A stretch of DNA of 64,000 bases from an uncultured Clostridia bacterium (GTDB taxonomy: Bacteria > Bacillota > Clostridia > Christensenellales > UBA1242), in NCBI GenBank assembly GCA_944350275.1, contig CALVOK010000043.1, forward strand, positions 24,411-88,410. The letters are read 5' to 3'. The notes beneath the pieces were generated by a model, which was given only the letters and a program-made list of their open reading frames with translations, was not told the origin of the DNA and searched no databases. The position numbers and the translations under genes are program-made. How positions within the stretch are numbered: position 1 is the first letter of the stretch; every line of letters starts with the position of its first letter. Below are positions 1,588-57,752 of this stretch, in pieces.

Positions 1588-1894
1588 AATGCTCCTTTTA
1601 ATTTATCTTGACGAATTGTTTTTTATATTGTCAAATAAAAATAATATATTTTGTCACCTATCAAATTATTTTTCAAAAATAATATCATAAAAATATCAAA
1701 CATAATATTATTTTATAAAACACATTTTTAAAATGACTAACAATATAATAATACAATATTTTTATGGTGTAAAGAGTTATTTTATTATTTCCCAAAAAAA
1801 TTTTTTGTCTAATTTAGCCGAATTTGTATCAATTTTGTCGTTTTATAAATTATTTTGTTACATTTTGTCGAATTGACTTTTTCCTGACGTCATT

Positions 1895-2966: not shown

Positions 2967-3428
2967 ATGATAGATTTTATTTCCGAGGCAATTAAAGAGG
3001 CAAAAAAGGCATTAAAAAAAGACGAGGTTCCAATCGGTGCCGTCATCGTCAAGGATGGCAAGATAATAGCAAAAGGTTATAACAGACGAGAACACAGCCA
3101 AAACGCACTCGACCATGCCGAAATGATAGCATTAAATCGTGCCTGCAAAAAACTCTCTTCCTGGCGACTTGATGGCTGTGATATCTACGTCACCCTTGAG
3201 CCCTGTCCAATGTGCTGTGGAGCAATTGCAAACGCGAGAATTTCTCGACTAATATTTGCCTGCAAAGAGACCACCTCACAGGATAATTTATGTGAGAAAA
3301 TTTTATCAAGTAACCGTCTCAATCATAAGGTTGAAATAATCTTTGATAACACCCACGAGGTCCAGTGCCAAAATATGCTGAGTGAATATTTTAAAAGTAA
3401 ACGTAAAAACAAGAATATTTTAAATTAA
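2967..3428 (+). CDS. tadA: tRNA adenosine(34) deaminase TadA
   Basis: 153 aa with the CDA-fold zinc motifs HAEMIAL and PCPMCCGA; size and N-terminus (EVPIGAVIV) are typical of TadA. Confidence 0.85.
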   Translation: MIDFISEAIKEAKKALKKDEVPIGAVIVKDGKIIAKGYNRREHSQNALDHAEMIALNRACKKLSSWRLDGCDIYVTLEPCPMCCGAIANARISRLIFACKETTSQDNLCEKILSSNRLNHKVEIIFDNTHEVQCQNMLSEYFKSKRKNKNILN

Positions 3429-3440
3429 CTTAAATAAAAT

Positions 3441-3660
3441 GTTGATTTTTGTTGATAATTCTTATTTTTCGTTGATTTTTGTATTTTTTCGTCGGTTTTC
3501 GTTGATAATTTTAGATTTTTGTTTATTTTCGTTGATTTTTGTATTTTTTCGTCGGTTTTTGTTGATAATTTTAGATTTTTGTTTATTTTCGTTGATAATT
3601 TTAGATTTTTGTCGGTTTTCGTTGATTTTCGTTGAATTTTGTCGGTATTTTTTTATTAAT
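3441..3660. repeat. Phased array of about 21 ten-bp T-tract words (gttgattttt, gttgataatt, ttagattttt, gtattttttc, gtcggttttc, gtttattttc), including a 60-bp higher-order unit repeated twice
   Basis: Direct reading. The words stay in exact 10-bp register. 3471-3530 equals 3531-3590 except for one base. The array is T-rich on the + strand and stop-free, which explains the spurious 74-aa track ORF 3439..3663. Confidence 0.9.
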
Positions 3661-3685
3661 TAAAAATACATTAAAAAATACAAAA

Positions 3686-3716
3686 AATGCGGAAATTAAA
3701 ACCGCATTATTTTATT
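3686..3716 (+). terminator. Rho-independent terminator hairpin (aatgcgg / ccgcatt) followed by a T-rich run
   Basis: 7-bp GC-containing stem 3686-3692/3702-3708, flanked by an A-run upstream and a T-rich tail downstream. Confidence 0.55.
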
Positions 3717-3935
3717 AAATTTTGCTTTTTATTAATCTAAGAAATTAAATATTTTTAACTGATTAAAAGCAAGTTCTATTTTATTAAAATTGAATTTGTT
3801 TTATTATTATTTTAATTAAATTTATTTTATAAAAATTATATTTTTAAATTAAATATTTTTTATAAAAATAATTAAATATTTTTTATAAAAATTTTAGAAT
3901 TCGGTCGCAACATCTTTACAGCCTATAAATATATT

Positions 3936-4421
3936 TTACAAAAGGTCCATAAGTTGTCTCTCAAACTCTTCCTCGCTGATTTTTCCCTCATTTCTGAGTT
4001 TTCTAAGACGTGCAATCTTATCCTCTTTGCTCTCCTTTATCACCTCGGTTTTATCGTCAAGCGGTATGGTCTTGTCATCCTTTGGGTTTATCCATACCCA
4101 GTCGGATATAAACATTGTTACTATCAAAAGCACGCATGACACTGACGGCAAATTTACAATTATTGAAAGCACGACGGCAGTCATATAATAGCCATATCTC
4201 TGCCTGAAAAGTTTTCCGTTGTTCCAAATCGACATGACAAGAAGAACGTCAATAAGTATTGAGCAGGCAATTGCTATAAACTCAAACACCACATAAAAAA
4301 CAGGCAATCTATAGTCAGGGTCCATCATAAACCACTGCACTACCGTATATATGCTGTAGGCGGTCTCTATCAGATTGAAGATTATTGCGACTATTATAAG
4401 CCATTTTTTTGTCTTGTTCAT
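3936..4421 (-). CDS. Membrane protein with a C-terminal SHOCT domain
   Basis: The ATG at 4421 is preferred (MNKTKKW..., preceded by the RBS aaggagag). About 4 TM helices, then KIARLRKLRNEGKISEEEFERQLMDLL, a typical SHOCT short C-terminal motif. Confidence 0.65.
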   Translation of the reverse strand: MNKTKKWLIIVAIIFNLIETAYSIYTVVQWFMMDPDYRLPVFYVVFEFIAIACSILIDVLLVMSIWNNGKLFRQRYGYYMTAVVLSIIVNLPSVSCVLLIVTMFISDWVWINPKDDKTIPLDDKTEVIKESKEDKIARLRKLRNEGKISEEEFERQLMDLL

Positions 4422-4628
4422 ATCTCTCCTTATATCAAAAAGTCTTATTGCAAACAAAAGACGTTTGTTTTATACTTACTATAACACATTTCACAAAAAT
4501 ACATTTTTTGTTGTTTGCAATATCTATTATGATAACATTTATCATAAATTATGTCAAATCATTTTGATAATTTCCTATTTTATTATATACTAAATTCATA
4601 CTATTATTACTTTATTTTTTAAGGAGAA

Positions 4629-5417
4629 ATGATGAAAAAAGTCAAAAATTTAAACATTGTTATCACAGGCTCGTCAAGCGGGATTGGTCAGGCACTTCGC
4701 TCCTACTATGAAAGTTGTGGCAACAAAGTGCTTGGAATAAGTTTGAGCGGTGACGACTACAATGCCGACGTCTCAGATAAAGAGGCTCTTGTCAAGGTCT
4801 TTGAGGATATAAAAACAAAAGTGCCGTCAATTGATATCCTGATAAACTGCGCGGGCTTTGGTCTGTCAGGTGCAATCGAACTTATAGATGAAAAACAAAT
4901 TCAAAAGGAATATGAGGTCAACGTGCTTGGTTCGGTCTATCCTATTCAACTCGTCCTGCCTCTTCTCAGCAAAAATGGCAAGATTGTCAATATCAGTTCG
5001 GCTTGTGCCCTCTTCCCTCTGCCCTTCCGTGCATTCTACTGCTCAAGCAAGTCGGCGGTAAGTATGCTTAGCGACTGTTTGCGAATGGAACTAAGTAAGA
5101 CCTCCATCCAGGTCACCGCAATCTGCCCTTGTGATATTAAGACTAACTTCACTAAAAATAGGCAAAAAGATTTTAAAACGAATGAGCGATATGGCGAGGC
5201 TATCAGGCTCTCTGCCGAGCGAATTGACAGTCGCGAAGATAAGAGGATGAGCATTGAAAAAGCCACCAAAATCATGACGAAAATCATAAACAAAAAGCAC
5301 TTCAAACCTCAATATGTTATGGGCATGAGGAATAAATTTCTCTATCAAGTGCAAAAATTTTTCCCAAAGTCACTGGTGCTAAAAGTTATGACAAAACTCT
5401 TCTATGTGGATAGATAA
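4629..5417 (+). CDS. SDR-family NAD(P)-dependent oxidoreductase
   Basis: TGSSSGIG Rossmann motif, NCAG, catalytic YCSSK (YxxxK), 262 aa. The start could be the ATG 3 nt downstream. Confidence 0.8.
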   Translation: MMKKVKNLNIVITGSSSGIGQALRSYYESCGNKVLGISLSGDDYNADVSDKEALVKVFEDIKTKVPSIDILINCAGFGLSGAIELIDEKQIQKEYEVNVLGSVYPIQLVLPLLSKNGKIVNISSACALFPLPFRAFYCSSKSAVSMLSDCLRMELSKTSIQVTAICPCDIKTNFTKNRQKDFKTNERYGEAIRLSAERIDSREDKRMSIEKATKIMTKIINKKHFKPQYVMGMRNKFLYQVQKFFPKSLVLKVMTKLFYVDR

Positions 5418-5446
5418 GTGCGGACAACAAATATAATTTTTAAAGG

Positions 5447-5790
5447 GAACGAGCGAGAACGAGTGAGAACGAGTGAGAACGAGTGAGAACGAGTGAGAAC
5501 GAGTGAGAACGAGTGAGAACGAGTACGAGTGTACGTGTACGAGTGAGTATGTACGAGCGAGTGAACGAGTGCGAACGAGTACGAGTGTACGTGTACGAGT
5601 GAGTATGTACGAGCGAGTGAACGAGTGCGAACGAGTACGAGTGTACGTGTACGAGTGAGTGAACGAGTGCGAACGAGTACGAGTGTACGTGTACGAGTGA
5701 GTATGTACGAGCGAGTGCGAACGAGTGCGAACGAGTACGAGTGTACGTGTACGAGTGAGTATGTACGAGCGAGTGCGAACGAGTGAGTGC
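5447..5790. repeat. Purine-rich satellite: about 7 copies of the 10-bp unit gagtgagaac, then about 5 copies of a roughly 56-bp higher-order unit (gagtacgagtgtacgtgtacgagtgagtatgtacgagcgagtgaacgagtgcgaac)
   Basis: Direct reading. Higher-order unit copies start at 5521, 5577, 5633 (42-bp variant), 5675 and 5733. The reverse strand has no stop codon in any frame, which explains the spurious 142-aa track ORF 5379..5807. Confidence 0.9.
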
Positions 5791-5792
5791 AT

Positions 5793-5885
5793 GGGCTCGA
5801 AAGTCAAATTTTAAATTTCATTTAAAATTTTGTTTTGCAAACTCGTTTGCAAAACTGCTCGCAGGAGCGAGCGACTTTCGAGCCC
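5793..5885. other. Perfect four-way-junction palindromic module: a 13-bp closing stem enclosing three abutting perfect hairpins
   Basis: Closing stem gggctcgaaagtc (5793-5805) pairs with gactttcgagccc (5873-5885). Inner hairpins are 5806-5830 (11 bp), 5832-5855 (gttttgcaaac/gtttgcaaaac) and 5857-5872 (gctcgc agga gcgagc). All pairs are Watson-Crick, with at most 1 unpaired nt between helices. Confidence 0.85.
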
Positions 5886-6115
5886 AACCTCACTTTTATT
5901 TATACAAAACTCTCAAACCCACATCACTTTTATAATTTTCATGTCAACCTCGCTTTTATTTATATATAACTCTCATGTCAACCTCAGTTTTATTTATACA
6001 TAACTTTCATGTCAACCTCGCTTTTATTTATATATAACTCTCATGTCAACCTCACTTTTTATTTATACAACATTCAACCTAATCTCACTTTTATATATGT
6101 TTTTCGAGCCCACCA
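5886..6115. repeat. Tandem 34-bp repeat (caacctcgcttttatttatatataactctcatgt), about 5-6 copies, bracketed by the direct repeat ttcgagccca
   Basis: Near-identical copies at 5945-5978, 5979-6012 and 6013-6046, with degenerate copies on both sides. ttcgagccca occurs at 5878 and again at 6104. Confidence 0.85.
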
Positions 6116-6224
6116 ACTATTTAACCAATCAATCTTCCAATCAATTCTTGCTCTTATTCCACCCCTATTTTGAAAATCTATCAAAAAAGCGAGCAATGAT
6201 GAAAATCAAAGTTCGCTTTTTGTT

Positions 6225-6552
6225 GTCGGTTTTTGTTTATAAACGTCGCAATTTGTTTTAAATCATCGAGTTTTGTATGTTTACGTCGGTTTTTGTTTAT
6301 AAACGTTTGAATTTGTATATTTACGTCGAATTTTGTTGCAAATTGTTGAGATTTTTCGCAAATTGTCGAATTTTAAATATAAAGTGTCAAAATTTGTATA
6401 AAATAGTCGGAATTTGTATCAAATCGTCAAGTTTTTTTCGCAAGTCGCCGAGAATTTGTATAAAATCGTCAAAGTTCTTTGAATATCGTCGTAAATTCTC
6501 ACAAACTGTCGAGAATTTTCGTATACCGTCGAGGTTCGTCGAAAAATGTCTA
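6225..6552. repeat. Phased array of about 17 twenty-bp units (consensus roughly aaacGTCGAAaTTTTGTATa) abutting the groEL stop codon
   Basis: GTCGG/GTCGC/GTCGA/GTTGA/GTCAA cores begin at 6225, 6245, 6265, 6285, 6305, 6325, 6345 and 6365 (exactly 20 bp apart), then at 6386, 6406, 6426, 6444, 6468, 6488, 6508, 6528 and 6548. This accounts for the spurious track ORFs 6277..6573 (+) and 6419..6616 (-). Confidence 0.9.
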
Positions 6553-6569
6553 TATTTCTCTCAGCCTTT

Positions 6570-8482
<1,913 letters not shown>

Positions 8483-8783
8483 TTTTTCCTCCTGCATATT
8501 TTTATACGAATTTTATTTTTGGTTTTCCTCTTTTCGAAATGCAATTTTTTGCCTTCAGAGGATACCATTTTGCCTTTAAAGTGGCTTTAAAATCTTCGCC
8601 TCGCCTGAATGGTTAAAATCTCTAGTTGTAAAAGATTTTCCCCCCTTAAAAGCAACTTTCAAAAGTAATTATAATACTTCTGCCCTGTCTTTTGCAAACG
8701 TTTTTTTGCTTTTACCGCTCATATTGTGCCACTTTTTGTCATAAACTAATTTATCATAGCAAAGGAGTGAAAATCAACCTTAT

Positions 8784-9596
8784 ATGTCAAAATTTACCAT
8801 AAAAAATCTGTTAAAGTCTAAAAAAAATGTGTTTTTGATTGCCTTGGCTCTCTTTTTGGTGTGCGCTAGTTTGATAGCAAACTGCCTATCTCTGATGATT
8901 GTTCCATCAAGTAGCACCTCAGAGAGCGTAAGTTACAACTCGTTTTCTCTTTATATGCTCTCTCTTGCAAAGTCGCAGGTGGAGAGCGAGGCAAACTCTC
9001 TTGCTGGTGACTACCAAAAAATTGGTGCGGGCGGTTATATCTGGAAAATTGACAATTACTATCACGTCATCTCATCAGTCTATGCGAACAAAAACGACGC
9101 AACTCTCGTGCAAAACAGTGTCAAGGCAAATCAGGGTCTTGATAGCGAGATTGTTGAGGTTAACTTTAAGTCTTTCTCGCTAAACGGCAATTTCTCGGCA
9201 GATGAGAAAAAGGTGTTAACAAAGTCGCTTGCCTCATTCTACGACTTTTACCTTGCTCTCTACGACATTGCAATAAGTCTTGACACCCTAGTATATAACG
9301 AGATATCTGCAAAACTTGCCCTCAATACCGCTCATAGCAACCTAAGTAACACCGTGCGTGACTTTAAAACGGTGTTTCCATCTCCTAGTGGCGAGATTGA
9401 ACTGCTCAGTCTTAGTCTTGACAAGGCACTGAGTGTGAGCCAAAGCCTTTGCGACGAGAGCACCTCTACTCAGACATTAGCAACTGCCCTTTCTCAAACT
9501 CAAACCTTTTCATCTACCTCTCAGACACTTTCATCAATGCTAAAATACCACTACACCACAGTGCTTGATATTTACTATCAAATGATAAATGGTTGA
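8784..9596 (+). CDS. N-terminally membrane-anchored hypothetical protein (possible SPOR-like beta-sheet domain)
   Basis: 270-aa ORF with a TM helix at aa 17-38. The segment GGYIWKIDNYYHVISSVYANKNDATLVQNSVKAN loosely resembles SPOR domains. No firm motif. Confidence 0.5.
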   Translation: MSKFTIKNLLKSKKNVFLIALALFLVCASLIANCLSLMIVPSSSTSESVSYNSFSLYMLSLAKSQVESEANSLAGDYQKIGAGGYIWKIDNYYHVISSVYANKNDATLVQNSVKANQGLDSEIVEVNFKSFSLNGNFSADEKKVLTKSLASFYDFYLALYDIAISLDTLVYNEISAKLALNTAHSNLSNTVRDFKTVFPSPSGEIELLSLSLDKALSVSQSLCDESTSTQTLATALSQTQTFSSTSQTLSSMLKYHYTTVLDIYYQMING

Positions 9597-9640
9597 AATA
9601 AAAGACCTGAGTAAAAATTTAAGCAGTTTTATAAAAAACA

Positions 9641-9761
9641 CCCTTTTCGACGTTACTAGACTTTTCTCGACGTGTTTAGACGTTGGTCGACAGTTATTGA
9701 CGTTTCTTGACTTTGGTCGACGGTTGTTGACAGATTTTGACGTTTTTTGTTTGTTTTTGAT
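9641..9761. repeat. Phased 10-bp array with the T(C/T/A)GAC core (reverse orientation of the GTCRA words)
   Basis: GAC recurs at exactly 10-bp spacing ten times (9649, 9659 ... 9739): cccttttcga|cgttactaga|cttttctcga|cgtgtttaga|cgttggtcga|cagttattga|cgtttcttga|ctttggtcga|cggttgttga|cagattttga|c. It lies between convergent genes. Confidence 0.9.
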
Positions 9762-9800
9762 TGAATTTAAGTTTTTAATGCACATTTTTCCCTCCTTGGT

Positions 9801-11012
9801 TTAAAGTTCTTTAATTATCTCTCCACATTGATAAAATGACTGTTTTGCATCATCTAAGTTTGTGCTTTCTTCAATAGAATTTTGGTTTTCTTCACTAAAA
9901 TTTAAGTTTTCTTCTTTGAAATTTATTTTTTCTTCATTGAAGTTTGATTTTTCTTGAGTCAAATTTGTATTATCTTCTAAATTCGAGGTCTCTTCGCTGG
10001 CAGTGTCTAAGTTAGTTTTGTCTAGGTTTAGGTTATTTTCGACGTCAGAGTGTGAGTTGTCCGCTGAAGTCTCCGCTGTTTTAGAGTTTATGTAGGCATA
10101 GTTTTCTTCTGCGCGGTTAAGAAGAGCACCTAATATGTAAATGTACAAGTCTTTTATCTCGTCATTGTTCATCACCTGCCAAACTATATCTCGCAGGTCC
10201 TGTGCCTCAATGTAGTCAAATTTCTCAAGCAGTTCTATCTCGCTGTAACTTGTAAAGCGGTACTTAAAATCACCCTGCTTTGCTTGAGAAAGTGCTTTTA
10301 CTATGGTTTTAACTACTTCGCTGAAGTACTGCTTGCCTTTTTCGTCGTAACCCCAGTAAGAGTAGTACTGCTGAGTTTTCTTAAGCAGGTTATCTTTCAT
10401 TTCCCTCGCGTCGTGTGTGAGAGAGGATGTATGCGTATGTGCGTGTGCGTGCGTATGTACGTGTGCGGGCGCGGGTGCGGGTGATAGATTATTTATTTTA
10501 TTTTTCGACAGACAAAAATTAATTTCTTTTTCTTCTTCTTTTTCTATTTCTTTATTATTATAGGGATAATTAACTCCAATTATCTGGCAATTATCTTGAA
10601 ATATCTCTTTTTTATCTTCAATTATCTTTTTGTTTTTTTTATTGTCAGTTTTTGCCTTTTCTTCTGTTGCAAGAGTGGTTTCTTCCTCGTGGTCTAATAG
10701 GTCATTTTCTTTCTCGTCAGGGCTAGGATAATAGGGATTTCGCTCCCCTTTTTTGAAGTTTGGATTGCCTTTTTTGTGACCTTTAAGACGCTTGTCCATC
10801 CTTATACTTTTCTCAATGCTAGGCAGAAAACTTGTGATAATTGCCTGCGAAATTTGTGATAGTCCTGTAGGCTCTATCCCGCTTGACATAAAGGATATAA
10901 CCGCTTTGTATGTCTCAAGTTGATACTCCTCTGGCAGTGAATTTATTGTATTTGACCAATTGGTAAAAAACACGAAACACTCTCTTTGATAAACTTTATT
11001 TCTGTCTTTCAT
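9801..11012 (-). CDS. Hypothetical protein with an internal His/Thr/Ala low-complexity tract and a C-terminal N/E-rich repeat tail
   Basis: The start at 11012 (MKDRNKVYQ...) is preferred because the RBS aaggaggg precedes it. The protein contains PAPAPAHVHTHAHAHTHTSS and a tail of the form EEKINFKEENLNFSEENQNS. No recognisable catalytic motif. Confidence 0.6.
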   Translation of the reverse strand: MKDRNKVYQRECFVFFTNWSNTINSLPEEYQLETYKAVISFMSSGIEPTGLSQISQAIITSFLPSIEKSIRMDKRLKGHKKGNPNFKKGERNPYYPSPDEKENDLLDHEEETTLATEEKAKTDNKKNKKIIEDKKEIFQDNCQIIGVNYPYNNKEIEKEEEKEINFCLSKNKINNLSPAPAPAHVHTHAHAHTHTSSLTHDAREMKDNLLKKTQQYYSYWGYDEKGKQYFSEVVKTIVKALSQAKQGDFKYRFTSYSEIELLEKFDYIEAQDLRDIVWQVMNNDEIKDLYIYILGALLNRAEENYAYINSKTAETSADNSHSDVENNLNLDKTNLDTASEETSNLEDNTNLTQEKSNFNEEKINFKEENLNFSEENQNSIEESTNLDDAKQSFYQCGEIIKEL

Positions 11013-11141
11013 TTCTTCCCTCCTTGATTTCTTTTGCTTGGCTATATTATAGTCTAGCAATTTTTAATTTTTCAAGGTTATATGCCACAAATTATTGATT
11101 CTTTTAAAGTTTATTTTTAAGTCCTTTTTTAGCCATAAAAA

Positions 11142-11230
11142 AGATAATTCGAGAGATAATTCGCATTTTTTTGAAGATAATTGCAAGATAATTGGAGATA
11201 ATTGGAGATAAAAAAGATAAATAATTATCT
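11142..11230. promoter_or_regulatory. Iteron-like cluster of AGATAATT motifs upstream of the 9801..11012 gene
   Basis: Perfect AGATAATT at 11142, 11154, 11175, 11186 and 11196. Partial copies at 11206 and 11215, and an inverted copy aattatct at 11223. Spacings are mostly 9-12 bp. Confidence 0.6.
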
Positions 11231-11337
11231 TTTATCTTTTTTCGTGTTTTTTACTTTTCCCAAGATTTATTTTTACATATTTTATTGTTTCCAAATTCCC
11301 TCGTTTTTCCCAGTTTTTGTGTTTCTCTTCAAAATTA

Positions 11338-12966
11338 CTACTGAATTACCACCTCACCGTTGAGCCAACTGTTGAAAAAGCCCTCAAGGTCACAGTGAGA
11401 CGACTTGTTAAACGAGGCTATCATGTCGGCAGGAGTTGCGTTTTTGAAGGCAAAGTCAGTGTAATAGTCCTCTAGTGCCTTGAAAAATTTTCTATCACCT
11501 AAGGACTTTCGAATAGAATCAAACATTAGCAGTCCTTTTGTATAGGTACACTGCACATACTCTGGCTGGGTGTCGAATTTGTTAAGCGGTCTATCCATTG
11601 AGGTGTCTACACTTCCATTGACCTGAGAGTACACCCTCACAAAAGTTTTGTAACTCTCGGTGGCACTATCAATCATCGCCTTGCTGTCAACATTGTATTT
11701 TTCATTCCTCTCAAAAAAGAGCAGAGTGCTATACTCGGTAAGTCCCTCATCCATCCAGGCATGGTTATATTCATCATTGCCCACAACTCCATACCACCAT
11801 TGATGAGCAATCTCGTGTGCTATCACATAGGCAATGTCCTCTTGCGAAAGGTCGTCGCTTATCATAACAAGGTTTGGATACTCCATTCCGCCGTGGATAA
11901 AGTTTGTTTTTACAACATTTAGAGTTGAATATGGATACTCTCCGAATAAATCATTATAGGTATTAAGGGCATCGACTGCAATTTCAAGGCAGGTGTTTAG
12001 GTTATTGTCGCCTGTGTAACCGTAATAGGTCACCTTAACTAAGCCCACCTGTTGTGATTTGCTCGCAAAAATCTCGCTTAAAACAAAACAGAAATCTCGA
12101 ATATTGTCTCCGCTAACTTTTGCCATTGTCATGTCTTGAGCGGAAGTCGTGTTATTGGAATTTGTGTTATCTTGAGCGGAAGTTGTGTTATTGGAATTTG
12201 AGTTATCTTGAGCAGAGGTTGTGTTTTTGTCTGCTGGTGAGATATTGGTCTCTGACAAAACTACACCTGAAGTTGCAAGGCTAAAAGAAGATGGATAGCA
12301 AATCTCTACCTCATAGTTTGCCTGCTCACTGTAAAATGGGTCACCATTTGAGTGATAAAGGTCGGTTTTAAATCCCTCGCCCTCCTCATAGACGCAGAGA
12401 ATAGGATAAAAATTGCCAAAGTTTGTGGTGTTATTGCCATAACCTAGTCTATGATTTACATTTGCAAGAGTTGTGACAAATTCTATTGTAAAGGTAACCT
12501 GCTCGTCAGGATAGACCTCGCAAGGCAGGTTCACTTTCAGTATGTTACTGTCCTCGCCCTCAATGCTATACTCAAGATTTTCTCCGCCACCTGTCACACT
12601 TAACACTTCAATACCGCCGTAACTTTCGCCGTCAACATACACCTCATCCTCGTCCGCTATGCTGACAATAGGGTTTTTCGCACCCTCTCGAAAGGCATTT
12701 GGATAGAGGTGAAGATACAGATATGTGAACATATTATCATAATTATTGACAAACGTCACCTCCTCTCTTCCCGTTAGCGAGTGAGAGGTCTGGTCATAGG
12801 AGAGTTGCATTTTGTAACTTGAGACAGGAGTGTTGTCCTCCCTCAAACCGTTAACACATAAAATTGTCACTATCAAAATGACCGCAACAAACAAAACTAT
12901 AAGGGATATAATTTTAAATTTCTTATTTATGGTTATCTTTTTCATATTTGAAGTTGTCTTTTTCAT
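11338..12966 (-). CDS. M1-family zinc metallopeptidase (aminopeptidase N-like), membrane-anchored
   Basis: HEIAHQWWYG (HExxH) followed by WMDEGLTEY (the downstream Glu ligand). N-terminal TM helix. Internal 36-bp tandem insertion encoding NTTSAQDN(S/T)NSN. Confidence 0.85.
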   Translation of the reverse strand: MKKTTSNMKKITINKKFKIISLIVLFVAVILIVTILCVNGLREDNTPVSSYKMQLSYDQTSHSLTGREEVTFVNNYDNMFTYLYLHLYPNAFREGAKNPIVSIADEDEVYVDGESYGGIEVLSVTGGGENLEYSIEGEDSNILKVNLPCEVYPDEQVTFTIEFVTTLANVNHRLGYGNNTTNFGNFYPILCVYEEGEGFKTDLYHSNGDPFYSEQANYEVEICYPSSFSLATSGVVLSETNISPADKNTTSAQDNSNSNNTTSAQDNTNSNNTTSAQDMTMAKVSGDNIRDFCFVLSEIFASKSQQVGLVKVTYYGYTGDNNLNTCLEIAVDALNTYNDLFGEYPYSTLNVVKTNFIHGGMEYPNLVMISDDLSQEDIAYVIAHEIAHQWWYGVVGNDEYNHAWMDEGLTEYSTLLFFERNEKYNVDSKAMIDSATESYKTFVRVYSQVNGSVDTSMDRPLNKFDTQPEYVQCTYTKGLLMFDSIRKSLGDRKFFKALEDYYTDFAFKNATPADMIASFNKSSHCDLEGFFNSWLNGEVVIQ

Positions 12967-14628: not shown

Positions 14629-14977
14629 TTTGATAAAAATATATATAAAAATTCATTAATAAATTAAAAATTAATTTCAAATAAAAAAATATTATTTAAA
14701 AATAAGTTTGATTATAAATAAATTTAATTTGTTTTATTAAATAATTTTAATTAATTAAATAATTGTAAATAAATTTTAATATTAACCTATTTTTTAATAA
14801 AAATTTAATAAAAAATGTCTTTATTTGTCATATTTTTCAAGTTTTTTAGTAATTTTTATATATTTTTATTAAATTTATGTCATTTTATATTGATTTTTAC
14901 TTAAAATACACTTAAAATATTATTAAAGGCAATTAAAATATTATTAAATAAAAAACAGCATTTTAAGGGAGAAAATT

Positions 14978-15907: not shown

Positions 15908-15962
15908 TTTTTGTGCGGATGAACTGGGTGCGAGAGTTTTTGTGCGGATGAACTGGGTGCGA
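15908..15962. repeat. Direct repeat, 2 x 26 bp (tttttgtgcggatgaactgggtgcga), period 29 bp, running into the adjacent palindromic module
   Basis: Identical copies at 15908-15933 and 15937-15962. The second copy supplies the 5' strand of the closing stem at 15957. Confidence 0.9.
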
Positions 15963-16049
15963 CTTGCATAAGTCGAAAATCCTTTTCGACTTATATCACG
16001 TTTTTTAAAAAACGTGATGGTTGCTTTTGTAAGCAACCGCAAGTCGCAC
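15957..16049. other. Second perfect four-way-junction palindromic module: an 11-bp closing stem enclosing three abutting perfect hairpins
   Basis: Closing stem gtgcgacttgc (15957-15967) pairs with gcaagtcgcac (16039-16049). Inner hairpins are 15968-15994 (12 bp, ataagtcgaaaa/ttttcgacttat), 15995-16018 (24-nt perfect palindrome atcacgtttttt/aaaaaacgtgat) and 16019-16038 (8 bp, ggttgctt/aagcaacc). There are zero unpaired junction nucleotides. Confidence 0.85.
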
Positions 16050-16110
16050 ATTCAAAGAACAATTTTCTTACAAAATGTCTTTATATTATCATTATCTATA
16101 AAACACAATA

Positions 16111-16141
16111 AAAAATGCATGATTTTACTCATGCGTTTTTT
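16111..16141. terminator. Bidirectional Rho-independent terminator between dnaI (+) and the MBL hydrolase gene (-)
   Basis: Stem gcatga/tcatgc (16117-16122/16129-16134), flanked by an A-run on the left and a T-run on the right. Confidence 0.65.
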
Positions 16142-16145
16142 AATG

Positions 16146-16760
16146 TTATCTTGTTAAAAACCTCTTAAACACGGCAATGTTTTTCATTTGTGTTTGATAG
16201 GTGCTTTTCTCGCCATGACCGCTATAAGCCTCCTCAAAGGTAAGTTTTTCAAGTTTGCAAAGGCTCTCAAACATTTCATCCTTGCTGGAGTTTTTAAGGT
16301 CAGTTCGCCCTATCCCCTTTTTAAACAACACGTCACCTGAAAAGAGTTTTCCGTCTATTAAATAGCACTCACAGCACTTGCTATGCCCTGGACAATAGTA
16401 GCAGTCAACCTTAAACTCGTCAATCTGGATGGTCTTATCTTCGCCTATAAACTCAAACCTTGAAAAGTCGTCAATTGTCTCGCCATGCTTTGAATAGATT
16501 GCGACAGGGTCGGTCAAGGTGTCTTTTATCTTTTCGCTTGCATAGATTTTGCATTTGTAAAAGTTTGCATAGTCTAGCACGTGGCAGGAGTGGTCGTAAT
16601 GTCCATGAGTTAGAAGTATGCCGACGACTCTATTGTTTCCCACTGCCTTTATCAAATCATACAAGAAGGCACCACCATCAACTATTAGGCATTTACCATT
16701 TTTACTTACAATATAGACATTTGCATCCAAATATTGACCTATAAGTTTTTTTATTTCCAT
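16146..16760 (-). CDS. MBL-fold metallo-hydrolase (glyoxalase II-like)
   Basis: LTHGHYDH (HxHxDH) motif, downstream His/Asp ligands, 204 aa. Confidence 0.8.
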   Translation of the reverse strand: MEIKKLIGQYLDANVYIVSKNGKCLIVDGGAFLYDLIKAVGNNRVVGILLTHGHYDHSCHVLDYANFYKCKIYASEKIKDTLTDPVAIYSKHGETIDDFSRFEFIGEDKTIQIDEFKVDCYYCPGHSKCCECYLIDGKLFSGDVLFKKGIGRTDLKNSSKDEMFESLCKLEKLTFEEAYSGHGEKSTYQTQMKNIAVFKRFLTR

Positions 16761-33089: not shown

Positions 33090-33480
33090 TGGTGGAGACG
33101 GCGGGAGTTGAACCCGCTTCCGAAAAACTTGTTCAAAACTTTTCTACACGTTTAGTTTATGTTATTTTCTCGCTGATAAACCTAACATAAACAAAATTTT
33201 TATCAGCCTAGTCTATTTTTTATAAGTAACCTTAGACAGAGTAACTTACAGAGCACCTAATTTAAACCCTTGTATTCAATTTGGTGAGATTGAATAAGAG
33301 TCATCCGAAAGATTGTTCAGACTTAAGATTTGTTCACTTAGGCAGCACAAGCAAGGCTTGCATTGTCAAGACGAACTACATTATTTTTTGCGTTTATTTT
33401 TGTTGCCTACTTTTAGGTGCTAGGCACACCACGTGCTTTACATTTTGACCAATGCTCCCCGTCGAAACCATGACGCCCCC
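33090..33480 (-). ncRNA. ssrA: tmRNA (SsrA)
   Basis: 5' GGGGGCGTCATGGTTTCGACGGGG... and 3' ...GGAAGCGGGTTCAACTCCCGCCGTCTCCACCA (tRNA-Ala-like acceptor/T-arm). Tag ORF GCA AAA AAT AAT GTA GTT CGT CTT GAC AAT GCA AGC CTT GCT TGT GCT GCC TAA. It lies immediately downstream of smpB. Confidence 0.9.
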
Positions 33481-33493
33481 ATTTAAAGAGGGT

Positions 33494-33937
33494 TTAATAG
33501 TTTTTAAGCACTCGGTCGAGTCCTCTTTGGACTGCCCTATCCTTGAGAACCTGCCTTTTGTCATAAAGTTTTTTACCTTTTGCAAGACCAATCTCAACTT
33601 TTGCCCTGCCTTTCGACAGATAGACTTTTGTCGGCACAATTGAGTAGCCTTTTTCAAGAACTTTACGTTCCAGTTTCAGTATTTCTTCTTTATGCAAAAG
33701 TAACTTTCTTGTACGCTTGCATTCACTTTCACCTGCCGTCGAGTTTTCAGTCGGCGCTATGTAACAGTTTCTTAGGAAAGCCTCGCCATTTTTGATTGTA
33801 ACAAAACTATCACTAAGACTAATTTTGCCGTTTGCGACTGATTTTATCTCACCGCCTTTAAGTTCAATGCCCGCTTCAAGCAAGTCAGAAACGAAGAAAT
33901 TATGATAAGCCTTTTTGTTATTAGTTATTATCCTCAT
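33494..33937 (-). CDS. smpB: SsrA-binding protein SmpB
   Basis: The start at 33937 (MRIITNNKKAYHNFF..., RBS aggagg) is preferred over the longer track ORF. Also IELKGGEIKS and a C-terminal basic tail. Confidence 0.92.
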   Translation of the reverse strand: MRIITNNKKAYHNFFVSDLLEAGIELKGGEIKSVANGKISLSDSFVTIKNGEAFLRNCYIAPTENSTAGESECKRTRKLLLHKEEILKLERKVLEKGYSIVPTKVYLSKGRAKVEIGLAKGKKLYDKRQVLKDRAVQRGLDRVLKNY

Positions 33938-34184
33938 CTCGCCTCCTATTATAACACTGATTTTCAACTTTTTCAATACCCTATTTAAAAAAAGTTGAGA
34001 AAATTTCAAAAAATTTGCATTTTTTTATAAATTTTAGTCAAAAAACACGTTTTTTTGCATATTTTAAGCAAATTTTAATTGTTATACATATTTATTATAT
34101 ACTATTTTGTAAATAAAATCATACTAAATTTAAAAATATTTTGCTAATAAATGATAATCTTTCAGCAAATTTTGTCAAAAAATA

Positions 34185-39159: not shown

Positions 39160-39486
39160 TTAAATTATATCAATATCAAAAATATCGTCAAAGTCAATCT
39201 TTTTATTGTCTATTTCAAGTGTTCTTTCTTCAAAGAGAATTTTGCACCTGCCCTCCACCTCTTTATAATGCCCATCGTCATAATAATTTAGTCGAATTTT
39301 GTCGTTTTTTGTCAAATTTAATAAAATTTTGGTTATTTTTTCAATTTTTTCCTCGTCTAAGTCACCTTTTTCCACTCGTTCGTGCTGATACTCTTTAAGT
39401 CTTAGTGCCTGCGAAAGTCCTTTGAGTGCGTCAAAGGGCATGAATTGTTTTGCTCGGTCGCCTCTTGGCATTTTAACTCTCGCCAC
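39160..39486 (-). CDS. YolD-like protein (partner of the Y-family polymerase)
   Basis: PRGDRAKQFMPFDALKGL... is the YolD-like signature. It overlaps or abuts the 3' end of the polymerase gene, like the B. subtilis yqjW-yqjX and uvrX-yolD pairs. The start is the GTG at 39486 or the ATG at 39471. Confidence 0.75.
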   Translation of the reverse strand: MARVKMPRGDRAKQFMPFDALKGLSQALRLKEYQHERVEKGDLDEEKIEKITKILLNLTKNDKIRLNYYDDGHYKEVEGRCKILFEERTLEIDNKKIDFDDIFDIDII

Positions 39487-44017: not shown

Positions 44018-44629
44018 ATGACAAGATTTTTAAATAAAAAGAGTTGTTTTATTGGCAAAAATGTCAAGTTTGGCAAGAATGTCACAATCTACGAAAATAA
44101 CCACATTGATGGACAGTGCTATATTGGAGATGGTTGTGTTCTTTTGCCTGGTAACTTTATCTCAGATAGCCAAATTGGTAAAAACTGCACAATAGTGTCA
44201 AGTGTTATTGAAAAAAGCACAGTTTTTGACAATGTGTCAATTGGGCCTTTTGCAAGAGTTCGCCCTCAAACTAAAATTTTTAACAACTGCAAAATAGGCA
44301 ATTTTGTCGAGATAAAAAACAGTAGCATAGGGAAAAACACCAAAATAAGTCATCTTGCATATGTAGGTGATAGCGAGATAGGAGATGACTGCAATATTGG
44401 CTGTGGGGTTATCTTTGCAAACTATAATGGCAAATGCAAAAATAAATGCAAGGTCGGCAGGCACGTCTTTATTGGCTCTAATTGCAACATAATCGCACCT
44501 GTAAATATAGAAGATGATAGTTTTATCTGTGCTGGTACGACGGTTACACAGGATGTAAAAAAGGATGACTTTGTTATTGGGCGAGCAAGGCAGGAAAACA
44601 AACCTAATAAGGCAGGCAAGTATTGGTAA
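44018..44629 (+). CDS. Left-handed beta-helix acetyltransferase equivalent to the C-terminal (GlcN-1-P acetyltransferase) domain of GlmU; no uridylyltransferase domain
   Basis: The ATG at 44018 is preferred (RBS gaggag). Hexapeptide repeats, with HLAYVGDSEIGDDCNIGCGVIFANYNGKCKNKCKVGRHVFIGSNCNIIAPV matching the GlmU C-domain pattern. Only about 203 aa. Confidence 0.7.
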   Translation: MTRFLNKKSCFIGKNVKFGKNVTIYENNHIDGQCYIGDGCVLLPGNFISDSQIGKNCTIVSSVIEKSTVFDNVSIGPFARVRPQTKIFNNCKIGNFVEIKNSSIGKNTKISHLAYVGDSEIGDDCNIGCGVIFANYNGKCKNKCKVGRHVFIGSNCNIIAPVNIEDDSFICAGTTVTQDVKKDDFVIGRARQENKPNKAGKYW

Positions 44630-44801
44630 AAATATATAAAAAATAACAAAAAATTAAAAAATTGTTGAAAAAATTATTAAAAATATAAAAAATATTTAAA
44701 AAATAAAAATTATTCAAAAATATGATAAAAAATAATAATTAAATTTTTTCGACAATATTTTCAAATAAAAATACATTATTTTATTAATTTAAGGAGAAAA
44801 A

Positions 44802-53261: not shown

Positions 53262-53978
53262 ATGAAAAATTGGTTAAATAACTATAAAAATATGCCTTAT
53301 AAACAAAAGACAAGCCTCCACAATAAAATTTCAATGGGGGCAAATTTTGCGTGGAGTTTGTTAAAACTTGTGCTTGCTGGTGTAATTTCCTCTTTCTTTT
53401 TGACTCTGAGCGGATTTTACACAATGTGTCTTGCACTTGCAAAATGTTCCTATTTTGACGGAAGAAGAAATGCGAAAAATCTCTTTAAAGAGGAAAAATA
53501 TTATAAACAGATTGCCTTTATGATGATGATTGCAGGACTTATTTATCTTCTCTATATCTTAGAAATTTTTATTTACACACATGAGCAATCTTATGGACTT
53601 ATAATTTCCATTACCTTTGCACTAATTGCATTTTGCGAAATATTTTTCTCGGTGCGAGGACTTATTAAATCTTGGGCATCAAAAGACCTATTGCTTATTG
53701 GACTTAAACTTATCAACATCTCCTCCGCCCTTTCTTCTCTTGTTTTAACTCAAATTGCCCTGCTTTCTGTAAATTCCACCTCTACAAATACCATTCTCTA
53801 CAACACCCTATTTGGTATGTTTATAGGACTTATCACTATGGCACTTGGCATATATATGTTTTTCTATCTTACCTACTTTAACAAAAAACATTTTCATCTA
53901 ATTAAAAAACAAATTAAGTTTAAATTGTGTCAAAAAAAGATAAATATAAAATCAATACAGATAAATTATCACACGTAA
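53262..53978 (+). CDS. Integral membrane protein (about 6 TM), unknown function
   Basis: 238-aa ORF with regularly spaced hydrophobic helices. Confidence 0.55.
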   Translation: MKNWLNNYKNMPYKQKTSLHNKISMGANFAWSLLKLVLAGVISSFFLTLSGFYTMCLALAKCSYFDGRRNAKNLFKEEKYYKQIAFMMMIAGLIYLLYILEIFIYTHEQSYGLIISITFALIAFCEIFFSVRGLIKSWASKDLLLIGLKLINISSALSSLVLTQIALLSVNSTSTNTILYNTLFGMFIGLITMALGIYMFFYLTYFNKKHFHLIKKQIKFKLCQKKINIKSIQINYHT

Positions 53979-54092
53979 ATAAGATAAAAACAAGAAAAAT
54001 TCACAAAAAAATATGAAAAAACAGTAAAAAACATAAAAAAATGGTTAATTTTTTAGATTTTTATTAGTTTTAATATAATTTAAGGAGAAAAC

Positions 54093-56847: not shown

Positions 56848-57726
56848 TTATTTTAGAAAATATTTGTCTAGATAAAAATAGTTCCATGGTTTGTCACTCT
56901 CAAGCGGAGGACAGGCAAAGGTCATTTTTTGTTTGGTGGTTGGATGAATAAACTCAAGTCGCCCTGCCCAAAGTCCGAGATTTTTTGTGGGTTTAGTCTT
57001 GTCTTTTCCATATTTATTATCACCGTAAAGTGCACAGTTGATACCTGCAAACTGCACCCTGATTTGATGTGACCTGCCTGTGATAAGTTTTACCTCTACT
57101 AAGGCAAGGTCGTCATGTGTCTGCAAAACTTCGTAGGAAAGTTCTGCTCTTTTGACAAACTTTTCACCCTGCGGAACAATCTTGACAATATTATTTCTTT
57201 CATCCTTTTTTAAATAGTTAATAAGTTTGCCTTTTCTTAACTGAGGAATTTTTGTGGTGACCGCATAGTAGGTCTTTTTCATCTCCCCATCCCTTATCTG
57301 CTGAGACAGTCTGCTTGCTGTTTTAGAATTCTTAGCAAAGACCATAATTCCACCCGTTGACCTGTCAAGTCTATGCACAAGCCCGACGAATGCCTCACCT
57401 ACCTTATTGTATTTTTCTTTAATATACCTCTTCACCTTTGACAGCATATCATCGTCACCTGTTATATCACTTTGAGAGGGAACATTCTGTGGCTTTACTA
57501 CCACTATTAAATGATTGTCCTCATATAGCACAGTAAGGTTTTCACTTTGTGGTAATTGTTTTTCATTTGAATTTTTATTTTGTGATAATGGTTTTTCGTT
57601 TTGTGATAATTCAACATTTTTATCAAAATTTTCATTTTTTAACGTTTTTTCGTGATTTTTTAACGTTTTTTCACTGTTTTTTTCTATATTTTCTTGATTT
57701 TTTATTGTTTTTACATTATTTTCCAT
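56848..57726 (-). CDS. RluA-family pseudouridine synthase with an N-terminal N/E/K-rich low-complexity extension (start uncertain; the open frame extends to 57786)
   Basis: Catalytic HRLDRSTGGIMVFAKN, with the core beginning around LTVLYEDNHLIVVVKP. The ATG at 57726 is preceded by the RBS aggaagag and avoids overlap with the upstream gene. Confidence 0.8.
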   Translation of the reverse strand: MENNVKTIKNQENIEKNSEKTLKNHEKTLKNENFDKNVELSQNEKPLSQNKNSNEKQLPQSENLTVLYEDNHLIVVVKPQNVPSQSDITGDDDMLSKVKRYIKEKYNKVGEAFVGLVHRLDRSTGGIMVFAKNSKTASRLSQQIRDGEMKKTYYAVTTKIPQLRKGKLINYLKKDERNNIVKIVPQGEKFVKRAELSYEVLQTHDDLALVEVKLITGRSHQIRVQFAGINCALYGDNKYGKDKTKPTKNLGLWAGRLEFIHPTTKQKMTFACPPLESDKPWNYFYLDKYFLK

Positions 57727-57752
57727 ATTTTTATCTCTTCCTATATCCTTAT

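Follow-up and report, generated by a model that had tools for sequence, protein, structure and literature searches.

We analyzed a 64,000-nucleotide stretch of DNA from an uncultured Clostridia bacterium (GenBank assembly GCA_944350275.1, contig CALVOK010000043.1, positions 24,411 to 88,410 of the forward strand), hereafter the window. At the locus under study, tadA, a gene of the tRNA adenosine deaminase family, converges on the gene for a SHOCT-domain membrane protein, and the spacer between the two genes holds a tract of 10-bp words that we term array A. Array A is a member of a small family of non-coding, hypervariable decamer minisatellites of one uncultured gut Clostridia species, three of which (arrays A, B and C) lie in the window and one (array D) just left of it. 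The family has a mean step of 10.0-10.3 bp and lies mostly in convergent spacers, in a genus with phased A-tracts and repeat-rich spacers.

The window is bacterial, with a transfer-messenger RNA (tmRNA), three tRNAs and housekeeping genes; its G+C content is about 36%, the minus strand holds most of the genes and the cumulative GC skew declines throughout, with no switch. By TadA, the closest genomes in GTDB are metagenome-assembled genomes of uncultured Clostridia from animal guts (L005 at 68% identity, L006-L008 at 60-64%), and by GroEL we recognized syntenic sister species at 93% (L204-L206), 92% (L334) and 89% identity (L207-L208). The species is rare in databases, exact-protein look-ups with TadA, GroEL and the SHOCT protein yielding a handful of contigs. 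A GroEL homologue (P0001) was dropped because it belongs to an unrelated organism with 61% G+C. The controls were 79 tadA-centred loci of other genomes (1.21 Mb), many of them similarly A+T-rich.

Array A and related decamer arrays

Word segmentation that permitted steps of 9-12 bp divided array A into 22 words, all 22 of exactly 10 bp and without indels (Table 1). The consensus word is TTTTGTTGAT and the word types are TTTYGTTGAT, AATTTTAGAT, TTTTGTTTAT, TTTTGTATTT and TTTYGTCGGT; the Ts and the G-T step are conserved most strongly, and head positions 7-9 are variable. Identity autocorrelation was 0.61, 0.63, 0.71 and 0.80 at lags of 10, 20, 30 and 60 bp, compared with about 0.40 elsewhere. 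The 60-mers at 3471-3530 and 3531-3590 are one base apart, and Tandem Repeats Finder (TRF) reported periods of 30, 60 and 90, with 2.7 copies, 92% matches and no indels at period 60. Such nested, head-to-tail higher-order units of high identity characterize a minisatellite, or variable-number tandem repeat. The composition is strand-asymmetric (T 57%, A 23%), and a regular expression for T4+, A4+ and AnTn runs found 20 tracts in 210 bp with a phase coherence of 0.87 at a repeat of 10.0 bp, the pattern of phased A-tract DNA (tracts of at least 4 bp every 10-11 bp over several turns). These results bear out an earlier sequence-only reading of the window, which had described about 21 decamers in exact register, a 60-bp unit repeated with a single mismatch and T-tracts recurring every 10 bp.

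The sequence of array A is the same in two independent assemblies (L001 and L003) and a variant of it is present in a third (L004); the array is therefore not an assembly artefact. A sliding period-10 score marked four arrays in the window, about 1.1 kb in all (3403-3709, 5373-5847, 6235-6619 and 9584-9823). The same scan found no period-10 array in the 1.21 Mb of control loci, where the periodic segments had periods of 6, 9, 12 and 15 and, in a few cases, 7 and 14.

Array B, with GTCGA, GTCGG and GTCAA heads, takes up the part of the convergent SDR-groEL spacer that is nearer to groEL, and abuts the groEL stop codon. Array C occupies the convergent spacer between a 270-aa gene and a DUF6291 gene, and its heads are inverted, reading TYGAC on the plus strand and GTC(G/A/T)A on the minus strand. 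The T-rich strand is nevertheless the plus strand there, as it is in arrays A, B and D. Arrays A, B and D have 13-16-mers in common, for example (TTA)CGTCGGTTTTTGT, always in direct orientation. Over five arrays pooled, 123 of about 134 steps are 10 bp and the remainder mostly 11 bp. Arrays A, B and C account for three of the 12 convergent spacers in the window, which has about 57 spacers in all by its ORF map. A fourth period-10 segment, at 5447-5790 (GAACGAGTGA, eight copies), is purine-rich and its vocabulary is unrelated to that of arrays A-D.

The sequence-only reading had named four further places where the vocabulary recurs, and each was confirmed: as arrays B and C, as about three words before the YigZ-family gene and, loosely, between the CAAX-protease genes (Table 1). 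Array D and the run downstream of dinB were absent from its list. Its description of 9641-9761 as inverted holds for the heads and fails for the T-rich strand. Its proposal of a genome-wide element class was not supported, since the long arrays cluster within about 13 kb, with none in the other 54 kb and none in the syntenic spacers of the sister species.

Table 1. Positions of the decamer arrays, shorter word runs and features of the tadA spacer (window coordinates unless a contig is named)
Feature	Position	Strand	Description
Array A	3437-3656		22 words, each exactly 10 bp; 30- and 60-bp higher-order units
Array B	6205-6567		35 words (32 of 10 bp, 3 of 11 bp); 20-bp superperiod
Array C	9635-9765		About 13 ten-bp words; few T-tracts
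Array D	L001:3815-4160		Some 3 kb to the left of the window, upstream of RNase J; 33 words (31 of 10 bp, one of 11, one of 12)
Loose word run (GTCTA, GTCG, TGTCGAA)	1800-1890		About 10-bp multiples; tandem spacer between two CAAX-protease genes
Three words ATGTCGAT TTATGTCGGT TTGTAGAA	24193-24222		Directly upstream of a YigZ-family gene
Short run GTCGAATTTT GTCGTTTTTT GTCAAATTT, then phased T-tracts	39285-39345		Downstream of dinB
tadA (tRNA adenosine deaminase family)	2967-3428	+	8 bp between its stop codon and array A
Spurious 74-aa ORF through array A	3439-3663	+	Frame stop-free here, not kept in L004
Short A-rich segment with two inverted words AAAAATAC	3662-3687		12-bp step; inverse complement of array word GTATTTTT
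Hairpin ATGCGG-N9-CCGCAT	3688-3708		Between an A-run and a T-run
SHOCT-domain membrane protein gene	3936-4457	-	Convergent with tadA; bounds the 507-bp spacer that holds array A

Array A is stop-free on the plus strand and array C is stop-free in one frame of each strand; the 30-bp superperiod probably gives rise to these open frames as a side effect. In strain L004, which has an identical TadA, the equivalent of array A has several stops in every frame of both strands. The 74-aa ORF is therefore spurious, as had been suggested for this strand-asymmetric, stop-free array, and a coding reading was rejected. We also rejected a structured RNA, with no Rfam match in 3300-6700 at gathering thresholds or at E<=1. 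A public assembly calls an 81-aa gene (9540-9785, minus strand) across array C.

The hairpin that follows array A could terminate transcription of both convergent genes, tadA and the SHOCT gene, as a bidirectional terminator. It is also present in L004, with a related hairpin at the equivalent place in L204, and it escaped the scanner because its loop is 9 nt. About 230 bp of A+T-rich 23-33-bp repeats extend 3' of the hairpin up to the stop codon of the SHOCT gene.

Variation among strains and sister species

In L004 the array downstream of tadA has 29 words in place of 22 (25 of 10 bp and 4 of 11 bp); the vocabulary is that of array A and the ends are conserved, with the order of the words changed and the array longer. 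Arrays B and C are unchanged in the one other assembly. The sister species are syntenic over tadA-SHOCT-SDR-groEL-groES and the RNase J region, and no period-10 array was found in L204-L208 or L334. Polymorphism of copy number and arrangement between strains, together with absence from sister taxa, is again the behavior of a minisatellite.

The tadA-downstream spacer of L204, L207 and L334 is long (about 300-400 bp), that of the farther relatives L006-L008 just 50-70 bp. On the tadA sense strand it is T-rich in L207 and L334 (62-67% T) and A-rich in L204 (48% A, 38% T), and it ends in a hairpin in L204 and L207 and in a three-hairpin palindrome in L334. The phase coherence of its T-tracts reaches significance in the window species and L005 (0.72-0.83 at 10.1-10.2 bp); in L207 it is borderline, and L204 and L334 lack it. 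Isolated words TTTTGTCGAATTTT, TTTGTCTA and TTTAGATTTT occur in the L204 and L207 spacers, and the TTTTGTCGAATTTT words of these T-tract-rich sister spacers are a plausible seed of the arrays. L005, the nearest relative in GTDB, has one array at the position of array C, made of different words (GGTTTTGTTA) with a 31-bp higher-order unit and a mean step of 10.3 bp. The comparison with the sister species therefore marks the decamer arrays as recent, species-level expansions, and the T-tract character of the spacers as older.

Tract phasing and DNA curvature

Phased tracts are not confined to the arrays. In the non-coding DNA of the window, with the arrays masked, the spacing of same-strand A- or T-tracts (at least 4 bp) peaks at 10-11, 20 and 30-31 bp. 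In-phase tract pairs number 179 and out-of-phase pairs 83, a ratio of 2.16 that compares with 1.5-2.7 in the relatives and 1.29 in the pooled controls and is matched by 2% of control subsets. Fourier analysis of AA/TT in non-coding DNA gave a broad signal at 10-11 bp in the window, one at 10.1 bp in the relatives and a weaker one in the controls, and was not decisive. To this extent the sequence-only reading was supported: a wider background of phased tracts exists in the genus. The TRF period histogram did not clearly favor helical multiples, and GTCG heads were not enriched between phased T-tracts outside the arrays in an analysis with coding DNA unmasked.

Curvature was modelled with the wedge angles of Bolshoy and Trifonov. 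In this model array A curves by 12.9 degrees per turn, exceeding each of 200 composition-matched shuffles (mean 8.6, maximum 12.8), with an end-to-end to contour ratio of 0.66 and a summed axis turning of 287 degrees. An ideal array of 21 A6N4 units gives 27.6 degrees per turn in the same model, array A reaching about half of this. The wedge model places the strongest curvature of the window at 33971-34090, 53971-54090, 44591-44740, 14771-14890 and 57601-57733, segments that carry 4-10 phased A5-A7 tracts each. These short runs are mostly intergenic and lie just upstream of genes with their A-tracts on the sense strand; the run at 57601 is within an annotated ORF.

We propose tentatively, at somewhat less than an even chance, that array A is helically phased DNA which slippage has amplified and whose effect is structural or topological. 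Most likely it acts, if at all, as bent DNA and not as a gene, an RNA or a known operator. The arrays would have arisen by slipped-strand or unequal-exchange amplification of 'T-tract + GTYRA' words, which 3' spacers of the genus, being rich in T-tracts, would already have contained. Microhomology recurs in phased T-tracts every 10-11 bp, so that duplications come in units of 10, 20, 30 and 60 bp and keep the helical register automatically. With a mean step of 10.0-10.3 bp, about 13-35 A/T-rich tracts and G/C-containing heads per array would therefore lie on one face of the helix. In each array some 130-350 bp of DNA may accordingly be intrinsically curved and anisotropically bendable, for the most part between convergent genes.

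The proposed action is an architectural or topological effect at the level of DNA, and roles as peptide, structured RNA, promoter or canonical operator are no part of it. Transcription from tadA would read array A as U-rich RNA and transcription from groEL would read array B as A-rich RNA; the T-rich strand is always the plus strand despite this difference in transcription sense, which therefore favors a DNA-level over an RNA-level feature. An array could be a preferred site that pins or absorbs the supercoils of converging transcription, or it could be wrapped by bend-seeking proteins, for example gyrase or HU-type proteins. Positive supercoils accumulate between convergent genes (PMC8360656), plectonemes are pinned by intrinsic curvature (PMC6301789), and gyrase both favors DNA whose G/C content varies in 10-bp phase and builds up downstream of transcribed units (PMC6379681). 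Minisatellites with a 10-bp unit have been described as topological elements in C. elegans (bioRxiv 10.64898/2026.08.08.743475).

Several points weigh against this proposal. The modelled curvature is moderate, array A lying outside the 25 most curved 120-bp segments of the window. The tract coherence of array A falls from its value at 10.0 bp to 0.39 at 10.34 bp and 0.09 at the canonical 10.5 bp. With a period of 10.0 bp and a helical repeat of 10.5 bp the bends therefore precess and do not add in one plane; a planar arc would require this T-rich DNA to wind with about 10.0-10.2 bp per turn, and the array would otherwise be a shallow superhelix. The 'strong' curvature of the sequence-only reading is unsupported or overstated on these figures, and is no more than plausible for array A. 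Array C, with its few T-tracts and well-conserved heads, would suit a sequence-specific reader better than curvature alone. The association with convergent spacers consists of three arrays in one 13-kb neighborhood, and genome coverage amounts to about 71 kb in all. Finally, the arrays are missing from syntenic sister species whose GroEL is 89-93% identical and vary between strains; they are therefore dispensable on short timescales.

Alternative explanations for the arrays

The arrays could be a neutral or mildly selfish product of slippage, in which a 10-bp seed expanded recently, the helical period was inherited from the spacing of the seed and nothing follows for the cell. We consider this rather unlikely, although it accounts well for hypervariability in strains with identical TadA and for the empty syntenic sites in close species. 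The high identity of the higher-order units implies recent duplication, and non-coding tandem repeats are dense in general (2.5 per kb in the window and 2.0 in the relatives against 0.63 in the controls, a 3-4-fold difference), including units of other periods (14/56, 34 and 21-23). Viral contigs, too, commonly hold simple 10-bp tandem repeats. Duplication by 10n units would keep the register without selection, but at least five separate arrays, and the L005 array of unrelated words, all have steps of 10.0-10.3 bp, and the diverged array D, with 33 different-looking words, has just two steps other than 10 bp. Since T-tracts are indel-prone, this suggests, roughly and with the indel rate uncalibrated, that indels have been removed. 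Mere slippage also leaves aside the placement of all three in-window arrays in convergent spacers and the phased A-tract background across the genus.

Array words might instead be tandem sites for a regulator that reads heptad direct repeats spaced by 3 bp, such as Spo0A (TGTCGAA), CtsR (RGTCAAA-NAN-RGTCAAA) or some other response regulator that binds head to tail. With dozens of its sites on one helical face, an array would then act as a titration sink, a silencer or a roadblock. We regard this as unlikely. The geometry is suggestive: a GT(C/T)(G/A/T)A head every 10 bp, found in all arrays, gives the 7+3 arrangement, as in phage Nf, where the Spo0A footprint covers two TGTtGAA boxes 3 bp apart (PMC2731898), and in the CtsR operator, a heptad repeat with a 3-nt NAN spacer (PMC12634643). 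The inversion of the heads in array C with the T-rich strand kept marks the head as an independent unit.

The box counts divide the arrays. Array D has four exact TGTCGAA boxes and seven within one mismatch (shuffle mean 0.6), and array B has one exact box. Tandem 7+3+7 matches number six each in arrays B and D (shuffle mean 0.0, maximum 1), and array C has five CtsR-type tandem matches within three mismatches (shuffle mean 0.1, maximum 2), seven of nine spacers carrying a central A. Array A, by contrast, has no Spo0A or CtsR box within one mismatch, and the boxes of a DnaA type in it are two one-mismatch sites, TTATCAACA. No one known motif fits all four arrays, and head positions 7-9 are poorly conserved. 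TGTCGAA ranks third of 298 7-mers of the same composition in the non-coding DNA of the relatives; it is over-represented in the controls as well, and its enrichment in the window is mild. WalR-like TGTWAN half-sites showed no enrichment.

The window has no CIRCE element (TTAGCACTC-N9-GAGTGCTAA, no match within three mismatches), and arrays B and C flank groESL. CtsR operators lie at clp and groESL promoters, and we saw no CtsR box upstream of groES by eye; the arrays, array C among them, are in 3' or convergent spacers. Sister species lack the arrays, and no sporulation gene was recognized among about 50 window proteins scanned.

An RNA or peptide element, either a U-rich tadA 3' untranslated region acting as a protein sponge or stability element or a repetitive hydrophobic micro-protein, is highly improbable: array A lies between the tadA stop codon and the first hairpin and is therefore probably transcribed, and open frames run through arrays A (74 aa) and C, but the L004 array has stops in all frames, Rfam gave no match, the G/T-rich strand cannot form a stable fold, and array B would be transcribed in the opposite sense as A-rich RNA, so that the arrays share no common RNA.

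Further candidate classes were rejected. An origin or DnaA cluster was dismissed because DnaA boxes (TTATCCACA) are not enriched in the window (none perfect, and 21 one-mismatch matches against a chance expectation of 19.2 +/- 4.5), the GC skew has no switch and the DnaA-box cluster of L005 is specific to L005. A plasmid or phage iteron or partition site was dismissed in view of the neighbors (tadA, SHOCT, SDR and groEL) and the lack of any match in plasmid or phage collections. For a promoter array, the consensus matches are weak and arrays A and C have no downstream gene. The arrays also differ from REP/BIME elements (repetitive extragenic palindromes and bacterial interspersed mosaic elements) and from miniature inverted-repeat transposable elements (MITEs): array A is strand-asymmetric and its sole inverted match is the A-rich segment at 3662-3700.

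A search of viral contigs with a TTTNGT x4 pattern returned unrelated simple 5- and 10-bp repeats, mostly of giant viruses. A search of metagenomes with the pattern GTCGGTTTTNGT...GTCGGTTTTNGT returned unrelated repeats, and this species was absent among the matches listed. Decamers of the TGTCGGTTT kind also occur on two unrelated metagenome contigs: L298 has six tandem GTCGGTTTTT words at 1290-1345, and at 1655-1760 of L311 two direct copies of TGTCGGTTT face two inverted copies, CCGACATTT, an operator-like arrangement.

Other elements in the window and its relatives

The spacers of this genus also carry 'cloverleaf' palindromes of 80-104 nt, in which a perfect outer stem of 10-14 bp surrounds three perfect hairpins with almost no linkers. 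We located them at 5792-5886 and 15957-16049 of the window, at 6653-6733, 6950-7052 and 12432-12531 of L005, at 544-623, 11750-11842 and about 19903-20012 of L204, at 8446-8549 of L207 and in the tadA-downstream spacer of L334. The three best examples have fold z-scores of -7 to -11 on both strands; the hairpins have the motifs TTTTGCAAAA and AAAATTTTAAA in common, and there is no Rfam match. The cloverleafs lie in 3' or convergent spacers, often at the sites of this species' decamer arrays. The one downstream of groEL has opposite orientations in the window and in L005, suggestive of a REP- or MITE-like mobile element.

Directly to the left of the window cloverleaf at 5792-5886, the GAACGAGTGA array of 5447-5790 passes gradually into units of 14, 42 and 56 bp made of the words GTACG, GTGCG and GAGTG. 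The ORF over it (5379-5807, minus strand) has no Pfam match, and two assemblies break within the region. To the right of the cloverleaf, a 34-bp repeat (TATAACTCTCATGTCAACCTCACTTTTATTTATA) is present in four copies at 5931-6067; its copy number differs in the L331 assembly, which is otherwise 99.99% identical over 7.3 kb.

The DUF6291 gene (9801-11012, minus strand) contains an alternating purine-pyrimidine repeat at 10432-10483 (TGCGTATGTACGTGTGCG, Z-DNA-like) in the C-terminal part of the ORF, with words like those of 5520-5790, and inverted AATTATCT copies at 10568-10631. Upstream of it, at 11130-11240, are AGATAATT iterons with 10-11-bp spacing. The gene is absent from L005, L204 and L207 and thus has the look of an insertion that carries an operator or origin of its own.

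In L005, four perfect and one near-perfect DnaA box (TGTGGATAAC) in an approximately 52-bp tandem repeat (16100-16240) directly follow the decamer array. This cluster lies between a 272-aa gene and an M1 peptidase gene, 1.7 kb from dnaB(DnaD-like)-dnaI, and no equivalent was found in the window or in L204-L209. In the region examined at 8498-8783 of the window, the groES-groEL operon has a leader of about 190 nt without a CIRCE element. The tmRNA (33090-33480), with the tag peptide AKNNVVRLDNASLACAA, adjoins smpB (33494-34009).

Discussion

Bacterial A-tract periodicity typically persists for about 100-150 bp. The arrays resemble the A-tract (AA/TT) periodicity of prokaryotic non-coding DNA (Herzel, Trifonov, Mrazek; PMC3431218, PMC516772, PMC4132750) in that A/T runs are phased at about 10-11 bp, are intergenic and are tied to curvature and nucleoid structure, and the background signal of this genus matches it. 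That periodicity is, however, statistical and usually near 11 bp in bacteria, whereas the arrays are discrete tandems of 130-360 bp with an exact 10-bp step, recognizable words and higher-order repeats. Helically phased A-tract DNA is known; its form as a polymorphic minisatellite is new.

The closest analogue of the arrays appears to be the 10-bp minisatellites of C. elegans, that is, the hyperperiodic DNA or periodic A/T clusters (PATCs) that derive from Helitron minisatellites (PMC1474062; bioRxiv 10.64898/2026.08.08.743475). They too have a 10-bp unit, are based on A/T-tracts, strand-asymmetric and bent, turn over as repeats and have a proposed response to supercoiling. PATCs are eukaryotic, intronic, nucleosome-related and transposon-derived, whereas the arrays lie in bacterial 3' spacers and no transposon source was found for them. 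By this analogy the arrays might be a bacterial counterpart of PATCs, helical-repeat-tuned minisatellites born from slippage-prone T-tract DNA and serving between convergent genes as topological elements (plectoneme pinning or gyrase loading), whose GTC(G/A)AA heads could also titrate a heptad-reading master regulator of the Spo0A/CtsR type; in this full form we hold the idea to be quite unlikely.

Enterobacterial REP/BIME elements are likewise repeated, extragenic and located in 3' or convergent spacers, and some REPs are strong gyrase sites (PMC3333891, PMC6379681). REPs are G+C-rich imperfect palindromes mobilized by RAYTs (REP-associated tyrosine transposases), whereas the arrays lack dyad symmetry; the three-hairpin cloverleafs in the corresponding spacers of the genus are the closer analogue of REPs. 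In plasmid partition centromeres and iterons such as R1 parC and pSK41 parC, 10-11-bp direct repeats place protein on one face of the helix and yield a superhelical nucleoprotein filament. Sites of this type adjoin par or rep genes on plasmids, whereas arrays A-D adjoin none, and no similar DNA was found in plasmid or phage collections.

The tandem operators that Spo0A and CtsR recognize (PMC2731898, PMC12634643) are similar in that boxes of 7 bp, built on a GTC(G/A)AA core, follow one another head to tail 3 bp apart, and arrays B, C and D contain such boxes above shuffle expectation; these operators have 2-5 boxes at promoters, in contrast to 13-35 words in 3' spacers and the lack of any box within one mismatch in array A. 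The TAACTGA heptamer arrays of Beggiatoaceae, Cyanobacteria and Bacteroidetes (PMC4679880) and the Borg repeats (PMC9879509) are comparable as lineage-restricted, fast-evolving intergenic tandems of short words with unassigned function. The former have a 7-bp unit just upstream of start codons and the latter a variable period, with no helical phasing described for either, in contrast to the 10-bp unit of the arrays.

For 25 years A-tract periodicity in bacteria has been a diffuse statistical signal of unclear purpose. In this species the phasing takes the form of discrete, clonable arrays of hundreds of base pairs with an exact 10-bp step, recently born, polymorphic and situated between convergent genes. 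If the arrays are neutral, they show phased T-tracts biasing slippage to helical-repeat units and would be useful strain markers. If they affect the distribution of supercoils, the loading of gyrase or the availability of a regulator, one species and its syntenic sisters would constitute a natural presence/absence experiment, with which the importance of sequence-encoded DNA mechanics in a bacterial chromosome could be tested.

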